In this document: in pieces, positions 1,123 through 63,440 of the stretch
How positions within the stretch are numbered: position 1 is the first letter of the stretch
Layout: each line of letters opens with the position of its first letter
DNA from: Eledone cirrhosa
Taxonomy: Eukaryota
DNA: 64,000 nucleotides
NCBI GenBank assembly: GCA_964016885.1
Contig: OZ024746.1
Span: 68,014,001-68,078,000, forward strand
Reading direction: 5' to 3'
The notes under the pieces: generated by a model
Database searches by the model: none
Seen by the model: only the letters and a program-made list of their open reading frames with translations
Told to the model about the DNA's origin: nothing
Made by a program: the position numbers and the translations under genes

Positions 1123-4100
1123 ATGGTAACACATTGCTCCAGCAAACCAAAGGTGTGGGTTCATGTCCCATGTACGTCAATACTCATCCTTTTTTCCATT
1201 CAGAGGGTTTTTTAAAATCTCAACTAACAGACTAATTCTATTTAGTCAAATACAGCGTAATCACATGTTACTATCTAATTTTCAGCTTTAGATATATTTG
1301 TGAAGGTGTGTGTCTTGGTGGTTAGAGAATTGGTTTCACAATTGCAAGTTTGATTTCTGGGCCAAGCAATGTTATGTCCTTGAGCAAGACACTTTATTTC
1401 ATGTTACTCTTTCTGCTAGGAGTTGTAACTGGTAGATAGTATCAGCAATAGAAAGACCAATGAAAACATTGTTTCCTTGATCCAATTTGACAACTTGGTT
1501 CCACCCAACCAAGTTCCACCCAACTTGGTAAGCAATTGAGATCTGGGATCTTGTTTTTTTTTCTTCTTCAGATCATGTAATTGAATGAAGAGAATTGTAT
1601 TTCAAGAAACCTGATGAAGATGAAACATTCTGAAACACTGCAATGAAAACTAGTTGAAAATGAATCAATTATATAGCATTGAATTGAGAGAATTTCTTAT
1701 CTCACCATATAAGACATGAGTTTTCCAGTAGTATTAAATGATGATGTTTTATACAGTAAATTCAATAACCTTCTATCTACCTTACCAGTTTTATAAAAAG
1801 TATGAGTAATTAACAAATTTAGAATGTAGAAAACGTTTGTAAACTGAGAAATAGTATCATTGGTAATCAATTTTATTCAAACATGTTTTTTTGTTACAAA
1901 TTGTTAAAACTGATATTTTTTTATAATTGAATTTAGAGTACTGGTGCAGAAATACCTGGAATTAAAATTTGAACTTTAACCAAAACATAAAAATAAACAA
2001 AAGTGTTTTGAATTCAAATTGAAATTCGTGTTTTTAGTTGAATTGTGTTTTAAGTTTTGATTCCAATTTCAGTTTTTAAATATCTCTGTAATGTATCATG
2101 CATGTGAGGAATCAATATTCTTACTCCATTTGCCTTTCAATAGCTGTTTTTATTTTTAATTATTTATTACAGTTTAATCAGGAAAAGAAAGGAAATGATC
2201 ATGACTGATCCCTTTTCAGGACCTTCAAGACTGAGGAGATGGGAGAAAAGTATCCTGAAACTGGAGACCTGGCCTGAATGCTTGCAGCAGAATAGACTTT
2301 ACAAAAGGCATCCAAGGGTTTTATAGTGATGGTGAACTGTGTAACAGACTATATCTGCCACCAAAATAGGCTAAAGCAGAATTTGAGCTTATAATGAAGA
2401 AATATCACAAAGCAGACACTAACAATTTCACCAATTCTAAAGTACCTTAAACTGGTAAAATGATAAAAGGCAAAGTTGTCCTAGTTAGGATTTAAATTCA
2501 GGCCACAGGGAGCCAGAGCAAATACTGTGAAATATAGTCTGGCGACTCTACCAATGCATTACTATACCAATTTACTGACCGTTGTATCAGCTATTTTTCT
2601 CCAAAGTATCCAAAATATAGGATCTTTCCATCCTCATGAATAATCAACTCACTATAATTTTTTTCTACCATCTTGCATATATTTTCACTACATATTCTTT
2701 CATTGGGTAGTATATATTTAATTGTTGCAATTGTCATCTTCAAAAGTAATTTGATTTGTGAAAATGGAAGCCACACATTTATAGAATTAGAATCTGTTGA
2801 GACTTCAAAAGCCTCTGTAATAACTATTTTTATTAATTATATCTAAAGACATGTCGCAATAAATTTGTATTATTCCAAGAGCTTCTACTTCTTTTATAGA
2901 CAATCACGTTAACACTAATTTTATTTTCTCTTCAGAAGTTCGTATAACTTTTATCTATTAATGCTTTCAGCTGAAATACCTTCTGCTATCTTTAGTAACA
3001 CACAAGAAATTCCCATTGGACATAGAAATTAATTATTCATGCTCAAGCCTGGAAGGATAACATGTCTTTAAAACATCATCTAAATAACAAGGAAAACTCT
3101 CATAAAATTACTAGTCTGAGGATAACTCATACAAACTTAGTTTAAGTCTTTCCTCAGTAAGAAGAACAACTGCTTTCATGTTTCAATTTAATTTTTATAA
3201 CCAACACATTTATCACACAAATTAAATTTCAGAATATTTTCTTTTTAAGTAAGAAAGACACTTCGAATATAAACAAGCAGCAAACACAGCACTAAATATA
3301 AGAAAATAAAGGTGCAGTTAATCTGAATGGTGGAATTCTTAACCAAAATAAATTAATACAAGTATATCATGAATAGCAAAACTGATATCAGAAGTTTGAA
3401 ATAAAATTTACAGGCATAGCTGTGTGATTAAGATGTTTGCTTTACAACATGGTTCCAAGTGCAATCTTTGGACATGTGTCTTCTACCATAGTCTTCAGTT
3501 GGCCAATAGCTTCTGATTGTAATTTTGGAGACAGAAATTGTGTAGAAGTCCATCATATAAATATTGTGTGCATGTGTATGGTTTGCCAATATGCATTGGT
3601 AAAGGGTATACATATTGGTGAGGAGATCAAAGAAGTGGTGCCTTTTTAACAAAGTCTTTTACTATATTTATTTTACACTGAGTTCTAAATACTCCCTCAT
3701 CACTCTCACCACAGCAAGAAAGTAAACGAGATTGGTCAATCAAAAACTCACATACAATGAGGCTAGTGTAATATAATTTAGTTTTTCAATTATTAATTAG
3801 TAGGAGAGAGGACAGTGCCATAACTTTTATATTCCTTGCCATACTAGTGATACTGCTATTGTTGTTGTTGGACAACTTCATATCAATCAGGAGTTGGGAC
3901 ATTTTTAGGATACTGTTTAAAATGTTTGGCTGTGCAACAGCAACACCGTTTTGAGTTGATAAACTTTTTGATAAAATGTAACTTTACGATTCAATAAATA
4001 AAGATCAATAAAATATGTCCGTCAATGAAATATACATTGGAGTTGATACCATTGGGAAAAACACTTGAAAGTGGCTGCAGTCAAATTACTGAAACCAGTA

Positions 4101-13132: not shown

Positions 13133-15316
13133 TCATCATCATCATCATCATCACCGTTTTACGTCCGTTCTTCCACGCTAGCATGGGTTAGACGGGTTGT
13201 CCTGTTGTGGGCAGTGTCTGGTCGGCTGACCATGCCTTGCTCATACAGGAACTGATCTGGCTTGATTTCTACAGCTGGATGCCCTTCCTAACACCAACCT
13301 CATTTACAGTGAGTGCTGGGTGCTTTTTCGTGGCGCCTACACGTCCACTTTACAGTGTGGGCTGGGTGCTTTTTTGCCGTGGCACCTCCACGACCACCTT
13401 GCGGTGGGGGGGGGGGGGGGCATATTGTTTATATGCTTCAGCATGTACCCATGGGAGGTCGGGTACCCTGTATTACTGCGTGACGCCAGAAGTCACGGTC
13501 GTGTGTCATTGACTTTGAGAGGTGTAGTTGGGTAAGGTCGGCTTTTATCACCTCATCCCAAGTCATCTTGGGTCTCCCCACTCCGCGGTTTCCATCAACT
13601 TCTAGTGCTCTGCACCTTTTTATGCAGCTGTCATCCTTCATACGCATCACATGTCCATACCAGCGTAACCGCCTCTCCTGCACGCAGCATTTGATTCCTC
13701 TTATGCTCAGTCTCTCTCTCAATTCATTTATGCTTTGTCGTTCACGTATATTACTGTTACACATCCATCGGAGCATGCAGGCTTCGTTTCTCTCTAATCT
13801 ACGTAAGTCTTCCACCTTCAGCGCCCAGGTCTCACTACCATGCAACATCGCTGTTCGGATACACGCATCATACAGTCTGCCTTTCATTCTGAGGGAGAAG
13901 CCTTTTGCAGCTAGCAGTGGTAGTAGTTCCCTAAACTTCTTCCATCCCGTTCTTACCCTAGTTATTGTACTTTCTGAGCACCCACCTCCGTTGCTAATTC
14001 GGTCACCTAGGTAGCAGAAGCTGTCTACTGTTTCTACAGGGCCCTCCCAGAGATTGGTGGTACTTGTTTCCTGTGGCTGTTTGCTTGCTGTTTCAGCACA
14101 GCTGCTGCATGTGAATCCTACATTCTTAATTAAGCTTCCTGAGATCCCGCTACATCTCTTGTGTACCCATTGTTTGCATTTGGGGCAAAGAATGGAGTTC
14201 CTACCTACACCTTTCCTACATACTGAGCAAGGCCATTTCCCTGAGGGGATCTGGGTTCTGTTTTCTCGTCTACTTATAAGGACCTTAGTCTTTGTCATGT
14301 TGACTTTGAGGCCCTTTCTCTCTAGTCCCTGCTTCCAGGTTTGGAATTTATTCTCTAGTTCTACCATAGATTCAGCTATGAGTGCGAGGTCATCAGCATA
14401 CAGGAGTTCCCATGGGCATCCGGTCTTAAACTCCTCCGTTATTGCCTGCAGGACTATGATGGACAGGAGAGGGCTAAGAACAGAGCCCTGGTGGACCCCA
14501 ACCTGTACGCTAAATTCCTCGCTATACTCATTGCCAATCCTAACTTTGCTGACTGCTCCCCTATACATGGCTTGTACCGCTTTCACAAGCCATTCATCTA
14601 CTCCTAGTTTTCTAAGAGCCCACCAGATTACTGCACGTGGAACTCTGTCAAAGGCTTTCTCAAGGTCGACAAATGCCAAGTAGAGTGGCTTACTTTTAGC
14701 TAGGTACTTTTCCTGTAATTGCCTCACAAGGAAGAGCGCATCAGTGGTGCCTTTCCCTGGAACAAACCCAAATTGCATCTCGTCTATATTCACCCGGTCC
14801 CTAATCAGCTGTGCTATAACTCTTTCTGTTACTTTCATGACCTGGTCCATCAACTTTATACCTCTATAGTTTCCTCTATCTAGTGCATCGCCTTTACCTT
14901 TGTAGCAGTTGACAATGATGCTACTGCACCAATCTTTTGGTATGGCCCCCTCTAGTATTACCTGGTTAACGATACGTGTGGTTATAGTGTGACCTACAGA
15001 CCCAGATGCCTTCAGCATCTCGGCAGCTATACCCGATGGACCGGTTGCCTTCCCTATCTTCATATCTCTGATTGCCTTACTTACTACGCTGCCGCTGACT
15101 TGTACTGCTGGTCCCTCTATAGGGTCTACGTGGGGTAGGGTCTCTTCTTCCCATGCATTCTCCTCATTTAGTAATCTATCATAATGACTCTTCCATGCAT
15201 CTTTCTTCTCAGCACTTGTGAGGGCAAGCTCACCTTTATCATTCCGGATACACTTCTCTCCAATGACATCACAACTATCTCTGACACACTGCCTCGCAAT
15301 CTTGAATACCTCCTGT
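13133..15316 (-). mobile_element. RTE-clade LINE family B, 5'-truncated, uninterrupted RT + PHD-finger + C-terminal ORF
   Basis: ORF 13438-15417 (element part from ~15316): NYRGIKL, QFGF, FVDLEKAFDRV, GVHQGSVLSP, LLYADD, C4HC3 finger, FCYLG, RRLRWYGHV; (GAT)n tail at 13133-13152. Confidence 0.95.
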
Positions 15317-16009
15317 ATAAATATATTTTGAGTTACTTGAAAAAAAAGGAGAAATAATGTACTTTCCACACCTTCACCTGTTACTCTCTTTAACAAGAGA
15401 AATAACTTGATATCCAATCAGTGACTCAGTGCTAATAGAAAAAAAGACTTCTGCTCAAAGTAAGATAGTAAGAATAAATACACTAGCCATTCCAGTTGTA
15501 AAAGACAGCTCCAACATAATAAATTGAAAGTTAATCCAAGAAACTACTGAGGGCAGTCCAAAACGAGCATCCCAAGTTGTTATACATGAAATACATCTAT
15601 TTCATACATAAGGAGAATGAGGTATGAAAGAAAGAGAAAATTACTGGAAAATAACAATAGAATGTCTAAAGCGATATTTGAAAACAAACAAATGGAAGCT
15701 GATAAGTGTAATAAGTAACAAAGAAAACAAATTAAATGTGTAGTGCAAATTCACTTTTATACAACCAAATTTCTTTCAAATCACACCCCACTCTCTTAAA
15801 AAGAGGAAGGACACACTAGATAATGTTGTCTCACATATACTATGCCTGAACATAATATAAAGTGGCTACAACTGAAACACAATTGAACATAGGTTTGCTT
15901 TAACAGGCTGACCTGGGGTTAAATAACAATGACAACTGTTATACATCAGTGAAGTTTAGAAATTACCAAATTTTGGAACTAATCAAGAGGAAGAGTGTCA
16001 GTGAGAAAA

Positions 16010-16258
16010 AAAGCAGCAACACTTCATTGGATGTGCAATGTAAATGTGAGAGAAAGACAGAGCTTGGGTAAACTGGGAGAGAAACTGCGTTTAAGAGGAA
16101 TCCGAGGTGGTGTGCAAGAGAGAATGTGTGGCTAAGGACATATGATGCGCATGGATGATGATTGCTGGGTGAAAAAAATGCAGAGTCAATCCCAGTAGAA
16201 GGAAGCCACAGTAGAGGTAAACAAAGAAAGATTTGAGCAGAATGGATGAGAGCTGATG
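16010..16258 (+). mobile_element. Decayed RTE LINE 3' fragment
   Basis: Frameshifted homology to WMCNVNVRERQS...EKL...RGI...VQER...GHMMRMDDDCWVKK...PVEG. Confidence 0.75.
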
Positions 16259-16799
16259 GCCCATCTGAGGAGGGAGCCCCATGAGGTTGGGTGGCTGTTG
16301 CAGTGGGTGACACTGGCCATCATCCACGGGGTGCAGCACTTCTGCCCCCTTGCCCTAGGCTCAAAGCCCAATCACCCCCCCCCCCCCTCCATCCCCACTC
16401 TTCTGCGACACCAGAGCTCTTGCCATCCCCTCCCCTTCCTGTTCTTTTCCTTCTCTTTTTTCTCTATATTTCCCTATTCTTTCTTTCCTTTTGGTTCCTT
16501 CTTTTTAATTATTGCTGTTATAGTTGTCATTATCATTATTATTATTGTTACATTACGACTTGTTTATAGTTCTTACAGAGTGAGGGTATTTTATAAATGA
16601 AATACTTCACAGCTTGATCATGAATTTATGCTACTCACAAATTTAATAAAGAGATCAAATCAAATTAAAATAAGGGATAAGATCTCAGCTAGTTATTAAA
16701 AAGTTAAGTTGTGAATACATAAAAGTTAATAGTATAAAGAAGAATTTAAATTAAGCAATCAAAACATAAAATGAAGGCTAATTAAGATTATTTTATGGT

Positions 16800-17420
16800 C
16801 AGTACTGGTACAACCATTACCAACTATCCAATACCCAGTGTCACTGCTTCCATAGCAGTCATTGTCTTAATTATAATGACTACCACCATCACAATGATCA
16901 CCACACACCCAAATACACAACCATCCACACCTCACCACCAAACTATCACCATCATCCATACTCTCAGTACGACAACCATCACCACCATCATTACCTTCAC
17001 TGTCACTATCACAAGAAGCACATCACCATAACTAACACCGCCATCACCACCAAACCACTCTCACCAGCACTATCATCACCATGGTCTAGTGAGATAGAGG
17101 AAATTGAAAGAGAATGTGTTGTATGTAATGATATAGAGTGAGGGAGAGAGAGTTTGTTGATTTAGTGAGAGGGGAATTGTGAGAGAGAGTGAGATATGTA
17201 GTGAGATATAGAGAAGGGGAGAGAATGTGATGGTATAGTGAGAGAGGAGAAGTTGTAAGAGAGAGTTGGGTATATAGTGGGAGAGAATTTATTGGTTTAG
17301 AGAGAGAGGGGGAATTAAGTGCATGGAAGAGTGTGAGTTATGTAGTCGAATATGGAGAGGGAGAGAGAATTTGGTGGTTTAGTGACAGAAGGGGAATTGT
17401 GAGAGACAGTGATGATGGTG
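16800..17420. repeat. Low-complexity block: (ACC/ATC)-rich then GA-rich degenerate repeat
   Basis: ACC-rich 16800-17080, GAGAGA/TAGTGAGA motifs 17085-17420. Confidence 0.8.
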
Positions 17421-17431
17421 AGGATGTATAT

Positions 17432-17776
17432 ATAAGGTGGTCATGTTAGTGACATGACAAAAAGCACCCAGTCCACCCTTTAAAGTGGTCATGTTGGTGA
17501 CACAACAAAAACACACAGTCCACCCTTTAAAGGACTCTTGCTAGTGACACAATGAAAAAGTACCCAGTCCAGCCTGTCACTTCGTCAATTTGATGCCACG
17601 ATAACATTCTCTAAATGTGGTTGGCATTAGGAAGGGCATCCAGCCATAGAAACCAAACCAGAAACAGTTCAGTAAGCACAAGACACTGTCACCTGAGCTG
17701 ACTTGTCTCACAATGAGACAACTAGTTTAACCCATGCTAGCATGGAAAATAGATATTAAACAGTGATGATGATGAT
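17432..17776 (+). mobile_element. S2/RTE-B 3' body with ~48-bp unit repeated three times
   Basis: TAAAGTGGTCATGTTGGTGACAC..AAAAAGCACCCAGTCCACCCTT x3, then GGAAGGGCATCCAGC and (GAT)n tail. Confidence 0.8.
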
Positions 17777-17803
17777 ATATATATATATATATATAGTAAT
17801 AAT

Positions 17804-17988
17804 TGTTTCTACTTTAGGCACAAGGCCAGCAATTACCCAGTGCATTACTGGTACTTTATTTTATCGACCCCGTAAGGATGAAAGGCAAAGTCAACCTCGG
17901 CAGGATTTGAACTCAGACCGTAAAGGCATGTAACTATGCTGGAAAGCATGGCGTCCGACCCTCTACTGATACTGCCAATTCACCGCCC
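17804..17988 (-). mobile_element. SINE S1 with 12-bp TSD, followed by a short duplicate
   Basis: Reverse complement of 12615-12801; TATAGTAATAAT at 17792-17803, 17989-18000 and 18038-18049. Confidence 0.9.
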
Positions 17989-18216
17989 TATAGTAATAAT
18001 TGTTTCTACTTTAGGCACAAGGCCAGCAATTACTCCCTATAGTAATAATAAACTTTAATCTGTTATTTTAATAAATATATATATATATATATGGAAAGTT
18101 ATATTTAAATTGTTGTGTTACAACAAGTAAATATTTATAACTGATATAAAAGCACTCGACAAATATTTGGAGTATATTTACAATATTAAATAAATGGAAA
18201 CTATATTTATAAAACC

Positions 18217-18293
18217 ATATTTATTTCATTATATATATTTCAGGGATAACATATTAACAATATGCTATGCCTTCCTCAGACAAAATACAATAT
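18217..18293 (-). ncRNA. Type I minimal hammerhead ribozyme (mirror copy in left arm)
   Basis: Exact reverse complement of 20281-20357; predicted cleavage between 18230 and 18229 on the minus (host-gene sense) strand. Confidence 0.8.
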
Positions 18294-20280
18294 AAACAGT
18301 TTTATAGATAAATAGATTCGACATACCGTACCAACATCTACTTGCATTTGAGAAGGTTGATTTGGTTGTGACAAAATTGTACACAGAGAGAAAGAAAGAG
18401 AGAGAGAAAGAGAGAAAAAGAGAGAAAAAAGAAAGAAAACGAAGAAAAAGAAAAAGAAGAAATGCATGGAACAAAATAGAGAGATGGAAAGATAGATAAA
18501 GAGAAGAACTTCATGTAAAGAAACAGAAAGAGATATATATATATATAGAGAGAGGAAATAGAGATAGATACATATATAGAAAGCTAGGTAGTGGAACGAC
18601 TGTTGAATAACGTATCAATGATACATTCATTTGTTTATTTATTTATTTAGCTCTAGTATTAATGTAAGGGAGATATATGGAGGGAAAACCAGCTGTTAAA
18701 TAGGGAGAGAAAAAATATAGAGAGAGAAAAAAGAGAGAGAGAAAATTCAAAAACATCCAGACACAAGCGAGGCGTACAAACCTCTGTTTTAATGTAGAGG
18801 TATTAGTAATTACAAAACCAGCCTCTGCATTGTAAATATCAGTATTCCTGAATGAGATATGTATCCACAATGTGTGAAAATTAATGATCTTATGTTTAGT
18901 TTTTTAAAAAATTCATATGTTTATGTGATAATTACAAACATCTATGTGAATGTACATGATCAATTCTGCAAACCCTAAGTTCACGGAAAGTATTCTCAAT
19001 GCGGTATAAAAATTTAAGTATACATATATGTGTATATAGAGTCAATATTACTATTTCTGTCTCTACTCTACAAGATTATCTATCAAGCAAAGATAGAGCA
19101 GATTTCAATATACTAATAAAAATAAAAATAAATAAAAATATATCGGAAACAAAACTAAACTAAAATAACAATAATAATAATAAGTAATAATAAAATAGAA
19201 AACTAAGAAATATTACGAAAGAGTATTACATATTAAAAATATTACATATTAAAAATTTACATATTAAAAATATTAAAAATAAAAAATTAGGAAATACTAC
19301 AGTAATAAAAATAAAATAAACCACAAAGATCAACCCTTCAAATAATATTTCTTAGTTTTCTATTTTATTACTTATTATTATTATTGTTATTTTAGTTTAG
19401 TTTTGTTTCCGATATATTTTTATTTATTTTTATTTTTATTAGTATATTGAAATCTGCTCTATCTTTGCTTGATAGATAATCTTGTAGAGTAGAGACAGAA
19501 ATAGTAATATTGACTCTATATACACATATATGTATACTTAAATTTTTATACCGCATTGAGAATACTTTCCGTGAACTTAGGGTTTGCAGAATTGATCATG
19601 TACATTCACATAGATGTTTGTAATTATCACATAAACATATGAATTTTTTAAAAAACTAAACATAAGATCATTAATTTTCACACATTGTGGATACATATCT
19701 CATTCAGGAATACTGATATTTACAATGCAGAGGCTGGTTTTGTAATTACTAATACCTCTACATTAAAACAGAGGTTTGTACGCCTCGCTTGTGTCTGGAT
19801 GTTTTTGAATTTTCTCTCTCTCTTTTTTCTCTCTCTATATTTTTTCTCTCCCTATTTAACAGCTGGTTTTCCCTCCATATATCTCCCTTACATTAATACT
19901 AGAGCTAAATAAATAAATAAACAAATAAATGTATCATTGATACGTTATTCAACAGTCGTTCCACTACCTAGCTTTCTATATATGTATCTATCTCTATTTC
20001 CTCTCTCTATATATATATATATCTCTTTCTGTTTCTTTACATGAAGTTCTTCTCTTTATCTATCTTTCCATCTCTCTATTTTGTTCCATGCATTTCTTCT
20101 TTTTCTTTTTCTTCGTTTTCTTTCTTTTTTTCTCTTTTTTTCTCTCTTTTTCTCTCTTTCTCTCTCTCTTTCTTTCTCTCTGTGTACAATTTTGTCACAA
20201 CCAAATCAACCTTCTCAAATGCAAGTAGATGTTGGTACGGTATGTCGAATCTATTTATCTATTTATCTATAAAACTGTTT

Positions 20281-20357
20281 ATATTGTATTTTGTCTGAGG
20301 AAGGCATAGCATATTGTTAATATGTTATCCCTGAAATATATATAATGAAATAAATAT
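20281..20357 (+). ncRNA. Type I minimal hammerhead ribozyme (intact core)
   Basis: Stem I TATTTTGT/ATGAAATA (extends ATATT/AATAT past a bulged G); core CTGAGGA 20295-20301; stem II AGG-C-ATAGCATATT-GTT-AATATGTTAT-C-CCT; GAAA 20333-20336; short palindromic stem III A-T-ATAT-A-T; NUH = AUA, predicted cleavage 20344/20345; AATAAA immediately downstream. Confidence 0.8.
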
Positions 20358-20414
20358 GGTTTTATAAATATAGTTTCCATTTATTTAATATTGTATATAT
20401 ATATATATATATAT

Positions 20415-20560
20415 TTATGTCAAATAGTATATCTAATGGTTTGAACGAAAGTGAAAGCTCTCACTTTTCGTAAAGATGGCTGTATTGTTGTATATTTATA
20501 TATCTGTGTTAACTGTGTTAAAATTCTATGTATCAGCCATTACGGTTCTCACTTGATGAT
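20415..20560 (+). mobile_element. Possible Penelope-like element 3' fragment
   Basis: Short frame SNSISNGLNESESSHFS* resembles the NGLN C-terminus of Penelope GIY-YIG proteins; lies between TA tracts next to the fold-back element. Confidence 0.3.
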
Positions 20561-20585
20561 GATGGTGTATATATATATATATATA

Positions 20586-20843
20586 TCATCATCATCATCA
20601 TTTTACGTCTGCTTTTCCCTGCTTGCAAGGGTTGGACGGGTCCTATTCAGCACAGCATCTCTCCACTTGTCACGGTCATTCGTCATCTCCTCGGTGAGTT
20701 TCAGCAATCTGAGGTCTGCTCTCACCACCTCCGCCCATGTTTTTTGAGGTCTTCCTCTACTGCGTCTTCCTTCTACTGGGATTTCTTGGCACTTCTTTAC
20801 CCAGCGGTCATCCTCCATGTGCATCACATGTCCATACCATCTC
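20586..20843 (-). mobile_element. RTE family A 3' fragment inserted in (TA)n
   Basis: RWYGHVMHMEDDRWVKKCQEIPVEGRRSRGRPQKTW...WRDAV; (GAT)n tail; TA tracts both sides. Confidence 0.9.
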
Positions 20844-20937
20844 ATATATATATATATATAACAAAGAGACTATGGTAAGAAATGAGGTGGACCATAATGC
20901 ACCAGAGTACTTGATACGTAGGATGGTAGAGTGGGTA

Positions 20938-21039
20938 ATAGGAAAAGAGCCAGGACCCCAGCAGCTGAGCTCCGACAGTTCGGATCTAGCAGTTGAAACG
21001 GCTGGAGCTCAGCTGTTGGGGTCCTGACTCTTTTCCTAT
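20938..21039. repeat. Short GC-rich hairpin element (~36-bp arms) between TA tracts
   Basis: ATAGGAAAAGAGCCAGGACCCCAGCAGCTGAGCTCC (20938-20973) vs GGAGCTCAGCTGTTGGGGTCCTGACTCTTTTCCTAT (21004-21039), 2 mismatches; 30-nt loop. Confidence 0.8.
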
Positions 21040-21198
21040 ATATATATATATATATTCATTTAGGTTTGTTGGTTCACCACTGGATAGAACTGGTCATTCC
21101 ATATAGTCAACCTTGATGTAATATTAGGGAGAGCACTCGATGTAATGCAACTCACCCATCTTCGTTTGTGTTGTTGGTGGTGCGAGTATGGAGTTAAT

Positions 21199-22228
21199 TA
21201 TTATAAAATAACAGGAGGCTGGACTGGTGTAATTCCTTAAAGGTTTATTATACTATGAACATTTCAATGACCGGGTTCAGTATGAATCCGGTGAGATCAT
21301 CCGGTATTCGAAATTTAACAAAGGAATATAATAGACACAATCCATGGGGCCGAAAAGGCAGAGAGAACAAGAAGGTGGCCAAACATTTAGTAGTTTCTAG
21401 TCCGGTCAGCCACCCTCAAGTGAGAACTACTACCACCCCATCATGGACAGAGGCTAGTGGTGGGATCAGGTTACATTCAAGTTGGTCAGAAGTGCTAAGA
21501 AATATATATTTTTTTAAAACATGTATCTTTAACAAAGCTATATATATAGTGGGCGCCTGTACAGTATATTTTTTTCATTGTAAGGTCAGAAATTACGATT
21601 AACGATTAGAAAAGTAAAATTTATGTTTAGAATTAAAAGATTTCATTTAAGATGAGATGGTTTAAAGTTGGGAGATTTAGTTAAAGAATTTACAGAAGGA
21701 GGCGTTTATGAAAAGGTTAAGTGTATTATTGATAGTCACGATGAAGTTTCAGGGTAGAATATAAAGTTAAGATTAAAAGTAAGATTAGAAAGTAAGAATA
21801 TAAAGTTAAGATTAAAAAGCAATATTAAGCCCATGTTTGGCGGTCAGTAACCAGTGACGTTGCAGACTCCCAGCCCACCCGGGGTCCCAATGGCGTGTCA
21901 ACCGTTCCAACTTCAATGTAACCTGATCCCACTGCTAGCCTCTGTCCATGATGGGGTGGTAGTAGTACACAATAAGCTTACGCCTCTTCACCAGAAAGAC
22001 ATAACAAGACTTAATAGTCCTCACTTGAGGGCGGCCAACTGGACTAGAAACTATTAAATATTTGACCGCCTTCTTGTCCCCATGGATTGTGTCTATTATA
22101 TTCCTTTGTTAAATTTCAAATACCTGATGATGTCACTGGATTCATACTAAACCCGGTCATTGAAATGTTCATAGTATAATAAATGTTTAAGGAATTACAC
22201 CAGTCCAGCCTCCTGTTATTTCATAATA
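21199..22228. mobile_element. ~1-kb fold-back element with ~290-320-bp diverged inverted arms carrying decayed hammerhead motifs (Penelope-like pLTR remnant)
   Basis: Arms 21199-21485 and 21907-22228 are reverse complements with substitutions and indels; right arm has ATTTCAA-ATAC-CTGATGA...TAAACCCGGTC-ATTGAAAT (22113-22166) then AATAAA; mirror copy 21261-21314 reads CGGATGA...TGAACCCGGTC; right end abuts (TA)n. Confidence 0.7.
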
Positions 22229-22252
22229 TATATATATATATACAGATAGATA

Positions 22253-23180
22253 TATTTCTTTATTAGCCACAGGGGCACAAAAGAAGGGGACAAATACAAA
22301 GGGGGAAGTTTACATACAATAAAAACGTGTAAAATGTTATCACAAATGGAATTTAAAAAGTTAGTCGATTTTCCCCAATAGAGGGAGACAGTTTATATGG
22401 GTAACACATACCCCCGAAAAAAAATGTGCAACCCTCATCTCCAGGAGTACGAAGAGTTTGTACTCCTTTCCTCTCCTCCTCCTTTTCCTCAACCTACAGG
22501 CTGATATAGAGAGAAGGCCCATTCACTCGGGCCATTCTCGCCACTTTCACCCACCTTTCATAAAAGTTGCTGGGGTACAGCACCTCTCTCTCCATCCTGA
22601 TTCTTCTTCCAAAGTGGTATTTGAAAAAAAGAATCAGTTGTTGGCCGGAGAGAAAGGTGTCTGACCTTAGCCCTTTCAACCTTGTCCACCATACAACCTC
22701 TTTCGTCATAGCTATCACACAAAGGAAAACCGCCTCTCCTTCGTTTTTGAAAGAGGGTGGCGGTTTGATCATGACAATGGACTCGGTGGTCAACTGGATT
22801 GGTCCCACCCGCGACAATAGTCGTTCTACATAGCCCCACAGGTCAGTGACGCCCGGGCAGTGTATGAATGCGTGCGCGACGGTTTCTTCGTCTCGCACGC
22901 ACCTCGGACAGATCTTTTTTGCAGGGTCCCTGCCCGGGCACCCATGTCTGTAGAGCTTGTCTCGAACTGGTAGAGCTCCTCGGTAGCACTGCCAGGCCAG
23001 GGACTTTTGGAAGTTGTCCATCGGTCCCGGGCGGAAGGTCCTACCGAACAGACTGGCCAGTTCATCTTCCTCTACGCCTAGAGTTTCACCGAGCGCGTTG
23101 TCGCACTTGCTGCGGACCAACCCTCTATAGAATGACGAAGTGGAGTCTCAACTGATCGCCGGGTCCGCCTGCCAGAGGGC
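22253..23180 (-). mobile_element. L1/Tx1-type non-LTR retrotransposon 3' fragment (zf-RVT CCHC domain + 3' UTR)
   Basis: ORF 22494-23120: LAWQCYRGALPVRDKL...CPRCVRDEETVAHAFIHCP...W; AATAAA (minus) at 22259-22264 followed by TATC/TA microsatellite. Confidence 0.8.
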
Positions 23181-58430: not shown

Positions 58431-58879
58431 CAATTTTTTTACCTCTACCACCACTGCCACCCCCACCACCATCATCATAATCCTCACTACTATTTAATGT
58501 CTACTATCGATGATGATAATTGTGTCACTTCAATCTTCAGTAATGATTTAGAATTTCCTTCAAAGACTTACAAAGAGCTTTAAAAGTAAAATTGCAAATA
58601 ACTAAATACAAATCTTAGTGATCAGTGGAAACACGAAACTTGAAGTAAGACTGTTAGAGTTTTTTCAGATTCTAATAGTAAAATAATATTTATACTATAC
58701 TGAATGTACTAAGTTCTTTTTCTCTCATTTCTAAACTGAACGCTATACCCACACCACTCTCTCTATATGTATGTATGTATGTATGTATATGCTGACATAT
58801 ACATGTACATATATATTTGTAGATACATACATATACATACACACACAGAAACAACACACATATATATGTCCTTATATAT

Positions 58880-60525
58880 ATCATCATCCTCATCATCATT
58901 TTACGTTTGCTTTTCCCTGCTTGCAAGGGTGGGAGGGTCCTATTCAGCACAGCATCTCTCCACTTGTCACGGTCCTTCGTCATCTCCTCGGTGAGTTTCA
59001 GCGATCTGAGGTCTGCTCTCACCACCTCCACCCATATTTTTCGTGGTCTACCTCTACTGCATCTTCCTTCTACTGGGATTTCTTGGCACTTCTTTACCCA
59101 GCTGTCATCCTTCACGCGCATCACATGTCCATACCATCTCAGTCTTCTCTCCTACACTCCACAACTTATCTCTCTTATACCCAGTTTCTTTCTCAACTCG
59201 TCTATGCTTGGTCGTTCATGCACATTGACATTGCACATCCAACGGAGCATGCTTGCTTCATTTCTCTCCAGCCGTTGCATATCTTCTGCAGTTGCTGCCT
59301 ATGTCTCACTACCATGCAACATCGTGCATGTCACACAGGCATCATATAACCGTCCTTTTGTATGCAGGGAGCAACCCTTCTTTGTCAACAGAGGAAGCAG
59401 CTCCCTAAATTTTTTCTAGTCCGTCCTTATTCTAGATACTATGGCCTCAGAACACCCCCCTCCCATGCTAATCTGATCACCTAGGTACCGGAAGATAACA
59501 ACCACTTCTAATGAACCCACCTGCATTAGAAAAATGTGTCTATCACTACGATTACTACTTCCAACTTTCCCTGTACATCTACTGCATACATAGTTTTCCC
59601 TACCTGTTAGTTTGCCTGCTATCCCACTACATTTCTTGTGTACCCAAGGTCTGCATTGCGTACATTTTATGGAATTTATGCCAGTTCCTTTCCTACATAT
59701 TGAACATGGCCATTTCCCTGATGGAATCAGAGTATTGTTCACTCTTCTACTTATCAAAACTTTGTCTTAGCTATGTTCACTCCTCTTGCTTCCAACTGCT
59801 GTTTCCATAGCCAGAGTTTGTTCTCTAGCTCCTCTACTGATTCTGCTATAAGAACCAGATCATCAGCATAGAGAAGTTCCCATGGGCATCCAGTCTTAAA
59901 CTCCTCTGTTATGGCTTGGAGGATTATAATGACAAGAGCGAGCTGAGGACCGAACCCTGATGTACACCTACTTGTATCTGGAATTCCTCACTAAACTCTA
60001 TTCCTACTCTCACTTTACTGTCCTCACAAGCCATTCCTCTACACCTAGTTTCCTTAGGGACCACCAGATGACAGATCGGGGTACCCTATCAAAGGCCTTC
60101 TCTAGGTCAACAAAAGCTAAGTATAGTGGCTATTCTTTTCTAAGAACCTCTATTGTAGTTGCTTCACTAAGGAGAGGGCATCTTTTGTACTTTTCCGAGG
60201 CACAAAACCAAACTGCATCTCATTTAATTTGACCCATTCTCTAATTAGTTGTGCTAATATTCTCTCTGCCACTTTCATAACCTGATCCATCAGTTTTATG
60301 CCCCTATAATTGTTCCTCTCCAGAGCATCCCCTTTACCTTTGTAGCAATTTATGAGAATACTGCTGCACTAGTCTTTGGGTAAGACATGACCATATATAG
60401 CCTGATTGATGATGCGGGCAACCAGTTTAGTACCTACTTCTCCTGATGACTTCAGCATCTCAGCAACTATCCCCGATTGTCCAGCAGCCTTACCATTCTT
60501 CATTTCCTTAATTGCCTCTTGTACC
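58880..60525 (-). mobile_element. RTE family A, 5'-truncated and decayed (RT to 3' tail)
   Basis: Frameshifted RT, KWPCSICRKG..CTQC..WVHKKC PHD finger, GRPRKIW, (GAT)n tail; flanked by TA tracts. Confidence 0.92.
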
Positions 60526-60540
60526 TATATATATATATAT

Positions 60541-63082
60541 ACCTTGGGGTACATGGTGGGCACGGTTACGGTTCAAGAAATGAAGAAGGAGTGAGACTTC
60601 TTGAATTTTGGTGAGCACATAAGCCAGATTGACTTCCTACTAGTTAGGCAGCGGGACAGGCAGATAGTGTCTAATACCAACGCATACCCTAGGGAAGAAT
60701 GTACCCCACAGCATAGGTTAGTTGTTAGTGATATCTCAGTAAGCAAGAGATGGAATGAGACATATAGGAAGGTGTGGAGAAGAAAGGTCTGGAAGCTAAA
60801 AGACCTTTCACTAAAAACCAAATTTAGGAAAGCCCTTCAAGATGTATATGACGAAAAAGAAGATGATTTAGAGACGTATGACATAGATAATAACTGGAAT
60901 TTCTTATGTGACAACTTGCTGCAGGCTACCGATGAAACTTGTGGCTGGAGCAGAGCTCCAACCAGACAGAGAGTGACCTGGTGGTGGAACAGCACAGTAG
61001 ATAAGGCTATTAGAGACAAAAGACTAGCATGGAAGGCTTGGAAAAAGGGTGGGAGTAGGGAAAAATATACAGCCACTAAGAGAGAAGTTAGACGTCAGGT
61101 GTACTTAGCACGCAGGGAGGCAGAGAGTAGGAGGTTTGCCAATGTTCTGCGACGGGAAGATCAGAGGCGTACAGTGTTCCACATTGCAAGACAGTGTGTC
61201 AATGCAAATCAGGATGTTGTTGGAGATCAATGTGTCCGGGATGATGCCGGTGTACTTAGTGTCATGAATGATCAGAAAAAAGGAGGCCTGGAAATGTCAT
61301 TGTGAGAGACTGATGAATGTGGAAAACGAATGGGAGAGAGAGAATTACCCTTGGTAGATCCGACAGAGGGACCAGCTATTGAGATTGACGAATATAGGGT
61401 CCAAGAGGCGATTAGGGAAATGAAAAATGGTAAGGCTGCCGAACCATCGGGAATAGCTGCTGAGATGCTGAAGGCATCAGGGGACGTAGGCACTAAACTG
61501 GTTGCACACATCATCAATCAGGCTATATATGGTGGTGTCATACCCAAAGACTGGTGCAGCAGTATTCTCATAAATTGCTACAAGGGTAAAGGGGATGCTT
61601 TGGAGAGGATCAATTATAGGGGTATAAAACTGATAGATCAGGTTATGAAAGTGGCAGAAAGGATTTTAGCACAACTAATTAGAGAAAGGGTCAAACTAGA
61701 TGAGATGCAGTTTGGTTTTGTGCCTGGGAAGAGTACAACAGATGCCCTCTTCTTGGTGAGACAATTGCAAGAGAGGTTCTTAGAGAAGAATAAGCCACTA
61801 TACTTAGCCTTTGTTGACCTAGAGAAGGCCTTTGATAGGGTACCCCGATCTGTCATCTGGTGGTCCCTAAGGAAGCTAGGTGTTGAGGAATGGCTTGTGA
61901 GGACAGTGCAAACTTTGTACAGAGGTACTCTCAGTAAAGTCAGGGTAGGAATGGAGTTTAGTGAGGAATTCCAGATACAAGTAGGAGTACATCAGGGTTC
62001 GGTTCTCAGCCCGCTCTTGTTCATTATAGTCCTCCAAGCCATAACAGAGGAGTTTAAGACTGGCTGTCCATGGGAACTTCTCTATGCTGACGATCTGGTT
62101 CTTATAGCAGAATCAGTAGAGGAGCTAGAGAATGAATTCTGGCTATGGAAACAGCAGTTGGAAGCAAGAGGACTGAGAGTGAATCTAGCTAAGACAAAAG
62201 TGTTGATGAGTAGAAAAGAGGACAAAACCCTGATTCCGTCAGGGAAATGGCCATGTGTGATATGCAGAAAAGGAACTGGCATAAATTCTATAAAATGCAC
62301 ACAATGCAGATCCTGGGTACACAAGAGATGTAGCGGGATAGCAGGCAAATTAACAGGTAGGGAGAAATATGTATGCAGTAGATGTATAGGGAAATTAGAG
62401 AGTAGAAGTCGCATAGATAGACACATTTTTCAAATGCAGGAGGGCGCTATAGAAGTGGTGGATAGCTTCCGGTACCTAGATCAGATTAGCATGGGAGGAG
62501 GGTGTTCCGAGGCCATAGTATCTAGAATAAGGACGGGTTGGAAGAAGTTTAGGGAGCTGCTTCCTCTGTTGACGAAGAAGGGTTTCTCCCTGCGTACGAA
62601 AGGCCGGTTGTTTGATGCCTGTGTGAGGAGCGCGATGCTGCATGGTAGTGAGTTATGGGCAGCAACTGCAGAGGATATGTGACGGCTGGAGAGAAATGAG
62701 GCAAGCATGCTCCGTTGGATGTGCAGTGTAAATGTGCGTGAACGACCCAGCATAAATGTGTTGAGAGAGAAACTGTGTCTGAGAGGGATAGAATGTAGGG
62801 TACGGGAGAGGAGACTGAGGTGGTATGGACATGTGATGTGCATGGAGGATGACCGATGGGTGAAGAAGTGCCAGGAATTGCCTGTTGAAGGAAGACGTGG
62901 TAGAGGTAGACCACGAAAAACATGGGCGGAGGTGGTGAGAACAGACCTCAGATCATTGAAGCTCATGGTGGAGATGACGAGGGACCGTGACGAGTGGAGA
63001 GATGCTGTGCTGAATAAGACCTGTCCCACCCTTGCAAGCAGGGAAAAGCGGACGTAAAAGGATGATGATGATGATGATGATG
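60541..63082 (+). mobile_element. RTE family A, 5'-truncated ORF2 pseudogene (partial APE, RT, PHD finger)
   Basis: GVHGGHGYGSRNEEG..LLEF / SQIDFLL (internal APE deletion), frameshift near 61280, RT motifs FVDLEKAFD, GVHQG, YADD, premature TGA 62680-62682; (GAT)n tail then (TA)n. Confidence 0.95.
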
Positions 63083-63440
63083 ATATATATATATATATAT
63101 ATATATATGAGGGCAGAGAGAGATGAGGAGAGGAAGGAATTTTTTAATCAAGATATCAAAGGAAAGAAATACCTAACTCTTGCTGAAGTAAATTTGTTAC
63201 AATTGTTCAGTTTTACTGCTATCATTCTTATGAACTAATACTAATTATCCATAAATTTTGCCACCATAATAACTAGACACAGACATTATGATTAATATAT
63301 TTTTATGTTTTTTTTGTTTCAAATGCGTTTTTTATTTTATTTTTTCAGCTTGATGGAAGATTATATCAACAAAATATATTGCAGCTAGGTTTATTTTCTT
63401 TGCTTATAAATACAAATTGTTAAAAGTTAAGATATATAAT

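Follow-up and report, generated by a model that had tools for sequence, protein, structure and literature searches.

Positions 18093-20414 of the window, by which we mean the whole 64,000-nt stretch of Eledone cirrhosa DNA analysed here, hold a palindrome with a hammerhead ribozyme motif in each arm, and the question that this locus raises is what kind of element leaves such a structure behind, and by what route. A preliminary description saw in it a non-autonomous, ribozyme-capped fold-back retroelement. Our analysis leads to another answer: judged by its sequence, the window copy is a single insertion, 5′-truncated and 5′-inverted, that derives from the 3′ UTR (1.6 kb) of a young Penelope-like element (PLE) of the Hydra clade, that is, a routine truncation product and ordinary transposon debris. 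For its origin we favor, with a probability of roughly 0.7, a single insertion in which both (TA)n ends of the target would have primed on one RNA, leaving two 5′-truncated copies of the 3′ UTR head to head.

When the window is compared with itself, the arms at 18173-19215 and 19343-20401 pair at 1038 of 1040 aligned positions, differing by 2 substitutions and by three indels (8, 11, and 3 nt) that lie within simple repeats, and a spacer of 127 nt separates them. No ORF of at least 120 aa is present within 18093-20414, and the earlier picture of near-perfect inverted arms of ~1.04 kb without a credible ORF is thus upheld. The ends of the palindrome are unequal: the left arm extends 88 nt more (18180-18093) before reaching a (TA)n target microsatellite (18075-18092), the counterpart of which on the right is at 20394-20414. 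In the family, outer ends sit in (TA)n, and apart from the TA repeat the sequences outside the palindrome are unrelated to each other. The spacer (19216-19342, minus strand) is itself element sequence and part of the left arm, being additional 3′ UTR that, by comparison with a full-length copy, was copied on that arm only. With the spacer included, the left arm is a 5′-truncated PLE 3′ UTR with the long 3′ end (18093-19342, minus strand; unit positions 2585-3855), 97% identical to a natural full-length copy at locus L034, and the right arm is a 5′-truncated copy with the short 3′ end (19343-20395, plus strand; unit positions 2715-3769).

The 88-nt tail found on the left arm only (18093-18180, minus strand) runs on, in full-length copies, into the 5′ UTR and the ATG. 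It contains hairpin 1 (18151-18173, minus strand), of the form ACUC-stem-loop-UC-GAGU-GCU, a predicted start signal for the reverse transcriptase (RT) that is conserved as a twin in related elements; the short start site lies 5-7 nt upstream of it. The arms meet head to head at 19342/19343 (19329-19355), a junction that is unique in the genome (1 match with at most one mismatch allowed). Lacking both an ORF and hairpin 2 (described below), and with a single hammerhead on each strand, the window copy is likely dead; it is possible that double-stranded RNA is made from it.

The two hammerhead motifs, at 20281-20357 on the plus strand and 18293-18217 on the minus strand, are identical, with CUGAGGA, GAAA, and an AUA triplet, and their predicted cuts fall at 20344/20345 and 18230/18229, respectively. 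The preliminary claim of two complete type I hammerheads holds in that both motifs were found with the core intact, and the folding and Rfam checks gave a divided result: core and pairs are in place (all 27 drawn pairs are canonical or G-U), but stem I consists exclusively of A-U and G-U pairs with a pair probability of 0.03-0.04 in its inner part, the hammerhead fold (−6.7 kcal/mol) departs from the MFE structure (−12.7 kcal/mol; folding z of −0.84), and within 16000-23000 of the window there was no Rfam hammerhead match at E ≤ 1, nor any other real match. The AAUAAA that had been placed after the cleavage triplet is present, but inside stem I. The self-complementary 8-mer at stem III and the weak fold agree with the earlier reading of a dimer-type hammerhead; by analogy, the motif is in keeping with what is described for animal PLEs, whose hammerheads are of the dimer type and of low activity (PMC4209133), and minimal PLE hammerheads and non-LTR retrozymes are likewise of type I with a palindromic short helix III (PMC4209133; bioRxiv 10.64898/2026.07.22.740005). 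A read-through RNA of the palindrome would have its whole ribozyme paired inside the arm duplex, in line with the suggestion that arm pairing could silence it. The notion of ribozyme-capped ends, on the other hand, is not supported: the predicted cut is ~50 and ~137 nt upstream of the genomic 3′ ends, no insertion ends at the cut site, and none of the 70 upstream repeats considered below begins there.

That other genomic copies exist, a point which the preliminary description had left as a question, is evident from the 5,356 exact matches of a hammerhead-core 20-mer in the 3.0-Gb genome. The first 100 of these matches form 64 clusters, namely 30 head-to-head pairs, 3 head-to-head triples, and 31 clusters showing a single 20-mer (only some of these singles were examined), with no tail-to-tail cluster among the 64. 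The PLE unit from which the arms derive is ~3,860 nt (3.86 kb) long, and at L034 an intact ORF of 737 aa lies upstream of the arm sequence, which supplies the autonomous partner, with RT and GIY-YIG domains and the same ends, that had been envisaged. ORFs of 737-741 aa were found at 9 of 27 loci bearing a junction between the pseudo-LTR (pLTR) and the 5′ UTR. The idea of a conserved frameshift close to the PPF motif was set aside, since intact ORFs exist.

The 737-aa protein (P0001) has a predicted structure with a pLDDT of 87.7 and TERT as its best Foldseek match (E 1.2e-9), a fold that points to a telomerase-related RT in a single ORF, as in PLEs with an endonuclease (EN+); Pfam left the protein unrecognised, with no RT match. 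An endonuclease of the GIY-YIG type appears to be present at the C terminus, at the level of motifs: the protein has IVY...YVG, and Y630, G632, R641, and H645 are invariant in 40 of 40 aligned homologues, 3 of which match the Pfam GIY-YIG model weakly (best E 0.0011). The Hydra clade of C-terminal EN+ PLEs (Craig et al. 2021) is characterized by RW[K/R], DKT, CxCX5C, CxxC, and CxH (PMC8557442), and the protein has RWR at 37, DKT at 118, CxCX5C at 596, CxxC at 694, and CxH at 721, with no DKG; by inspection, the CCHH motif of the EN is absent, there being no CxxC between IVY and YVG. GVKF occupies 84-87, the clade definition stating that an N-terminal GxKF/Y is not conserved. Insertion into (TA)n, a trait of the clade, holds for the outer ends of the family, and the EN+ PLE layout is seen in a pLTR with partial tandem, an inverted truncated 5′ copy, a one-sided tail, and a hammerhead motif in the pLTR, recognised by its core and stems without an Rfam match. 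Placed by these motifs, with published proteins compared by eye, the element is a new family of the known Hydra clade, and the Penelope-type ORFs intact in family copies, with their Hydra motifs, agree with the words "young" and "Penelope-related" of the preliminary description.

Compared with what is published on the clade, the family shares its protein motifs, pLTR hammerhead, and (TA)n target with members that include Hydra-1_Obim and Penelope-13_HM (PMC8557442). It differs in the length of its unit, which exceeds the <3 kb given as general for the clade (a typical, not a diagnostic, value), and in its 1.6-kb 3′ UTR; in its tail of 88 nt, compared with 30-40; and, compared by eye, in its hammerhead and UTR, which are unlike those of Hydra-1_Obim (PMC8557442). 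A 5′ inverted truncated copy together with a one-sided tail is the usual PLE layout (PMC8557442; PMC3846280), and the supplement of PMC8557442 includes a 966-nt 5′-truncated inverted copy of Penelope-13_HM with hammerheads on both strands. The layout of the palindrome is therefore a published form of PLE insertion and no new type of element.

Several observations stand beside this assignment. Homologues of the family protein include ones named for Argonauta hians, and another, P0112, carries the label of a Gammaproteobacteria metagenome bin, probably owing to animal DNA in the bin. Residues 485-512 of P0001 are asparagine-rich and of low confidence, which recalls the N-rich inserts of rotifer Penelope ORFs (PMC3846280). 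At locus L043 (2524-3635), pieces of an ORF that is more distant and has comparable motifs probably represent a third PLE family. Within the window, 21038-22243 holds a second head-to-head element with hammerheads, which is older and belongs to a sister family; its left arm has a ~144-nt tail and a mutated hammerhead core, and its hairpin 1 has a long insert. The sister family has 2,411 first-look candidates in the genome, and in all 7 distinct pairs among 12 loci, one of them rearranged, the ~144-nt tail was confined to a single arm. Kilobase inverted repeats of LINE-like RT elements with a PHD finger are found at 10359-11414/13133-14182 and at 58860-63100, with ORFs at 13438-15417 (minus strand) and 61306-62682 (plus strand).

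How the two arms came to be joined can be approached through the outer ends of many copies, which were classified in 61 sources, i.e., the window and loci L031-L090, mostly selected for hammerheads on both strands. Of the 49 head-to-head pairs among them, 48 combine a long end with a short one, in (TA)n; with the 13 insertions described next, exactly one end carries the 88-nt tail in 61 of 62 two-ended insertions. The exception, at L057, has a variant tail that begins and, after 20 nt, is interrupted. Both ends could be classified at 13 of 20 further junction-bearing loci, all 13 of which obey the rule (the other 7 comprise 4 without an inverted hammerhead, 2 with incomplete sequence, and 1 without a downstream hammerhead). 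Locus L278 (4501-4704), which was reached by a different route, breaks it: there the inverted arm starts ~125 nt inside the ORF, at neither start site, and still needs a template extending beyond the long end. No description of this one-long, one-short rule was found in the literature searched.

The two 3′ end positions are fixed, 88 nt apart, and in the full element each is followed 2-9 nt downstream by a copy of the same bulged hairpin, of the pattern RCUC-stem-loop-UN-GAGY-RCU. Hairpin 1 lies in the tail, and hairpin 2, GCUC...UU-GAGC-GCU, lies in the 5′ UTR, as seen at L034. The pattern matches only twice in the unit, with ~0.1 matches expected per shuffled 64-kb window; hairpin 2 does not fold as drawn in the MFE structure. 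In the sister family, where a hairpin was predicted after the long end, it was found in 6 of 8 pattern matches, at tandem junctions, two with mutations.

The hairpins extend beyond Eledone. An alignment-based scan of metagenomes gave 77 related loci of 30-38% identity (a scan of contigs with a single protein as query gave no match), in which the motif occurs 104 times in sense and 5 times in antisense. The twin arrangement is present as 34 pairs in 33 of the 77 loci, spaced by 55-83 nt, and a hammerhead lies just upstream of 26 of the 34. At inner-stem positions 1-3, pairing that the search did not demand, Watson-Crick pairs number 78/83, 51/77, and 38/49, compared with shuffled means of 42.6, 21.5, and 12.8, these being counts over distinct sequences uncorrected for relatedness. 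A second copy of the repeat could be compared 19 times in related loci. In 8 of these comparisons it stops 2-7 nt short of hairpin 1 or 2 (five times giving way to TA-rich simple repeats, twice at the end of a contig, and once giving way to other sequence), and the remaining 11 end elsewhere, at contig ends, tandems, or other truncations. By eye, the hairpin can also be recognized in published consensus sequences, twice in Hydra-1_Ajap and once each in Hydra-2_Amil and Hydra-2_Ajap. Rfam gave no real match for 17 twin-hairpin loci, only miRNA models on TA repeats. The twin hairpin is undescribed in the literature searched, chiefly open-access, and unmentioned in the available text of PMC8557442; Repbase notes and Arkhipova 2006, outside that scope, may bear on it. 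The hairpins likely tell the RT where copying starts from each side of the cut; the G-U pairs in their stems favor an RNA over a DNA signal only mildly.

The position of hairpin 2 also bears on the template. It lies beyond the long end, and no ordinary genomic 3′ end encodes it; since hairpin 2 is past every genomic 3′ end, ORF-bearing copies need a 3′ UTR that runs into a 5′ UTR. The genome holds 145 copies with the pLTR-5′ UTR junction, of which 70 were examined (L091-L120 and L133-L172), and 56 of these 70 retain an intact upstream hammerhead. No upstream repeat begins inside the stretch that the ribozyme occupies (123-208 nt upstream of the junction), compared with 14 and 13 starts in similar neighbouring stretches; three begin at 119-122, just past stem I. 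A ceiling of ~1.05 kb on the length of the upstream repeat, which in the first 30 loci had suggested a promoter, disappeared with 70 loci. In 18 of 23 cases, the 3′ UTR of the same copy is nearer to the 5′ repeat than any other copy is; in 3 there is a tie, and in 2 another copy is nearer. At L279 (G000:C2:316654500-316661500, ~1946-2410), a unit of 169 nt, which contains both hairpins but lacks a hammerhead, is present 2.1 times, with one long and one short end; this single case looks like a rolled mini-circle. From sequence comparisons of this kind, the template would be tandem or circular, and we put the chances of a circle for the ORF-bearing copies at about even. The upstream hammerheads, the kinship of the repeats, and L279 fit the model of cleavage, ligation, and circle formation that Cervera and de la Pena proposed in 2014 (PMC4209133). 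The circle step is weakened because hammerhead mutants of the lizard PLE Poseidon PAc (Anolis carolinensis) insert normally in vitro, unprocessed RNA being its main substrate (Frangieh et al. 2024, PMC11167929).

The same element could have produced its palindromes differently, with the arms coming from two separate RNAs, one brought by each subunit of a dimer that is asymmetric, or with linear tandem transcripts in place of circles, an alternative that we consider unlikely. Arm lengths are mostly independent, a multi-copy linear mRNA has been proposed for the lizard PLE (PMC11167929), and at three loci partial tandems of 1.8-2.3 kb were seen on the upstream side. Against this, 11 of the 49 pairs stop at the same 5′ point, when permutation gave a mean of 2.2 and a maximum of 8 in 20,000, and the paired arms belong to the same subfamily, with a mean of 2.2 differences per 170 nt between arms of one pair, and 7.8 to the median other copy, though 1.6 to the nearest. 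No same-strand junctions one unit apart, as a full tandem source would have, were seen among the first 100 of the 145 junctions listed; such a source could be among the other 45 or absent from the assembly.

A quite improbable account is that of self-priming, or snap-back, in which the cDNA folds back, or an antisense RNA primes itself (Arkhipova et al. 2013), and the endonuclease resolves the product to leave a one-sided tail. Proposals of this type have been published (PMC3846280; PMC8557442 section 15), 11 of the 49 pairs are near-perfect palindromes at their centre, and the hairpin could act as a DNA signal for a nuclease. The tail, however, is placed equally, on the longer arm in 17 pairs and on the shorter in 16 (apart from these and the pairs with a common stop, 4 are tandem and 1 is without a tail), and the same sense-strand hairpin is found at the same small distance from both end types; because of this equal placement and shared hairpin, two equivalent priming events fit better than snap-back.

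The fold-back retroelement of the preliminary description, moving as a unit, has very little probability left. Near-perfect arms, intact hammerhead cores, and an existing autonomous partner speak for it, but a self-propagating family with shared internal structure and symmetric ends is not supported: the inversion junction occurs once, arm lengths vary freely between copies, and the ends are asymmetric and away from the cut site. In addition, the window copy is without hairpin 2, and a fold-back RNA would pair its entire ribozyme. Lastly, although assembly can generate long near-perfect palindromes, an artefact is highly improbable here given the 2 substitutions and 3 indels between the arms, the flanks that have nothing but the TA repeat in common, and the unequal ends that obey a rule seen at 60 other loci.

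We return, therefore, to priming by both target ends on one RNA, for which a chain of steps from cutting to head-to-head joining is, in our judgment, probable. The endonuclease would cut both (TA)n strands, and each cut 3′ end, as a TA primer, would pair with a short UA stretch just upstream of one hairpin of the same RNA, the hairpins binding RT, probably as two molecules. The rear polymerase would have its long-site cDNA displace the short-site cDNA; each of the two cDNAs would then stall on its own, or both would run off a single broken 5′ end, and the truncated products would be joined head to head. Upstream of these events, the two hammerheads of a pLTR-ORF-UTR transcript may cleave as a dimer and the RNA be ligated to a circle, allowing rolling-circle copying. 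The complete model, in which the duplicated hairpin docks two RTs on a ribozyme-made circular RNA and both cut ends are extended simultaneously from two fixed starts, is offered tentatively, with odds that we set somewhat below even.

In the twin priming of L1, a single RNA is likewise primed by the two strands of the target, and a 5′ inversion results, without duplication and at a variable internal site. Here, in contrast, the two primers would begin at fixed sites close to the 3′ end, and the outcome is an inverted duplication.

Another likeness is with PAc, which has two internal RT starts and both strands of which are extended in vitro (PMC11167929). As in the Eledone family, the spacing of the two starts equals the tail, the target is AT-rich, both strands are cut and extended, and the ends lie away from the hammerhead cut (PMC11167929). 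The PAc starts are served by one AC-rich stem-loop inside the ORF, and its strands are alike (PMC11167929), whereas in the Eledone family each start has its own copy of a repeated UTR hairpin and is used once per insertion. Retrozymes, for their part, are direct tandem units with same-strand ribozymes (bioRxiv 10.64898/2026.07.22.740005), unlike the Eledone palindrome, an inverted pair with one hammerhead per strand and a unique junction.

Section 15 of PMC8557442 lists as open questions how PLEs transpose, where the tail comes from, and what the hammerhead does, and it is to these that the findings speak. If the mechanism is as proposed, then the tail, the pseudo-LTR, the head-to-head palindromes, and a hammerhead active only as a dimer would be aspects of one mechanism, and any RNA could be mobilised by no more than a short cassette carrying both hairpins. 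The twin starts, if they hold, would mean that target-primed reverse transcription has a two-ended form among telomerase's closest relatives, and would explain the kilobase palindromes, able to make double-stranded RNA, that fill such genomes. A covarying hairpin found clade-wide downstream of both starts offers exact mutations, and a family with intact ORFs offers the reagents; with the twin hairpin and the end rule in hand, the open mechanism of PLEs becomes directly testable.
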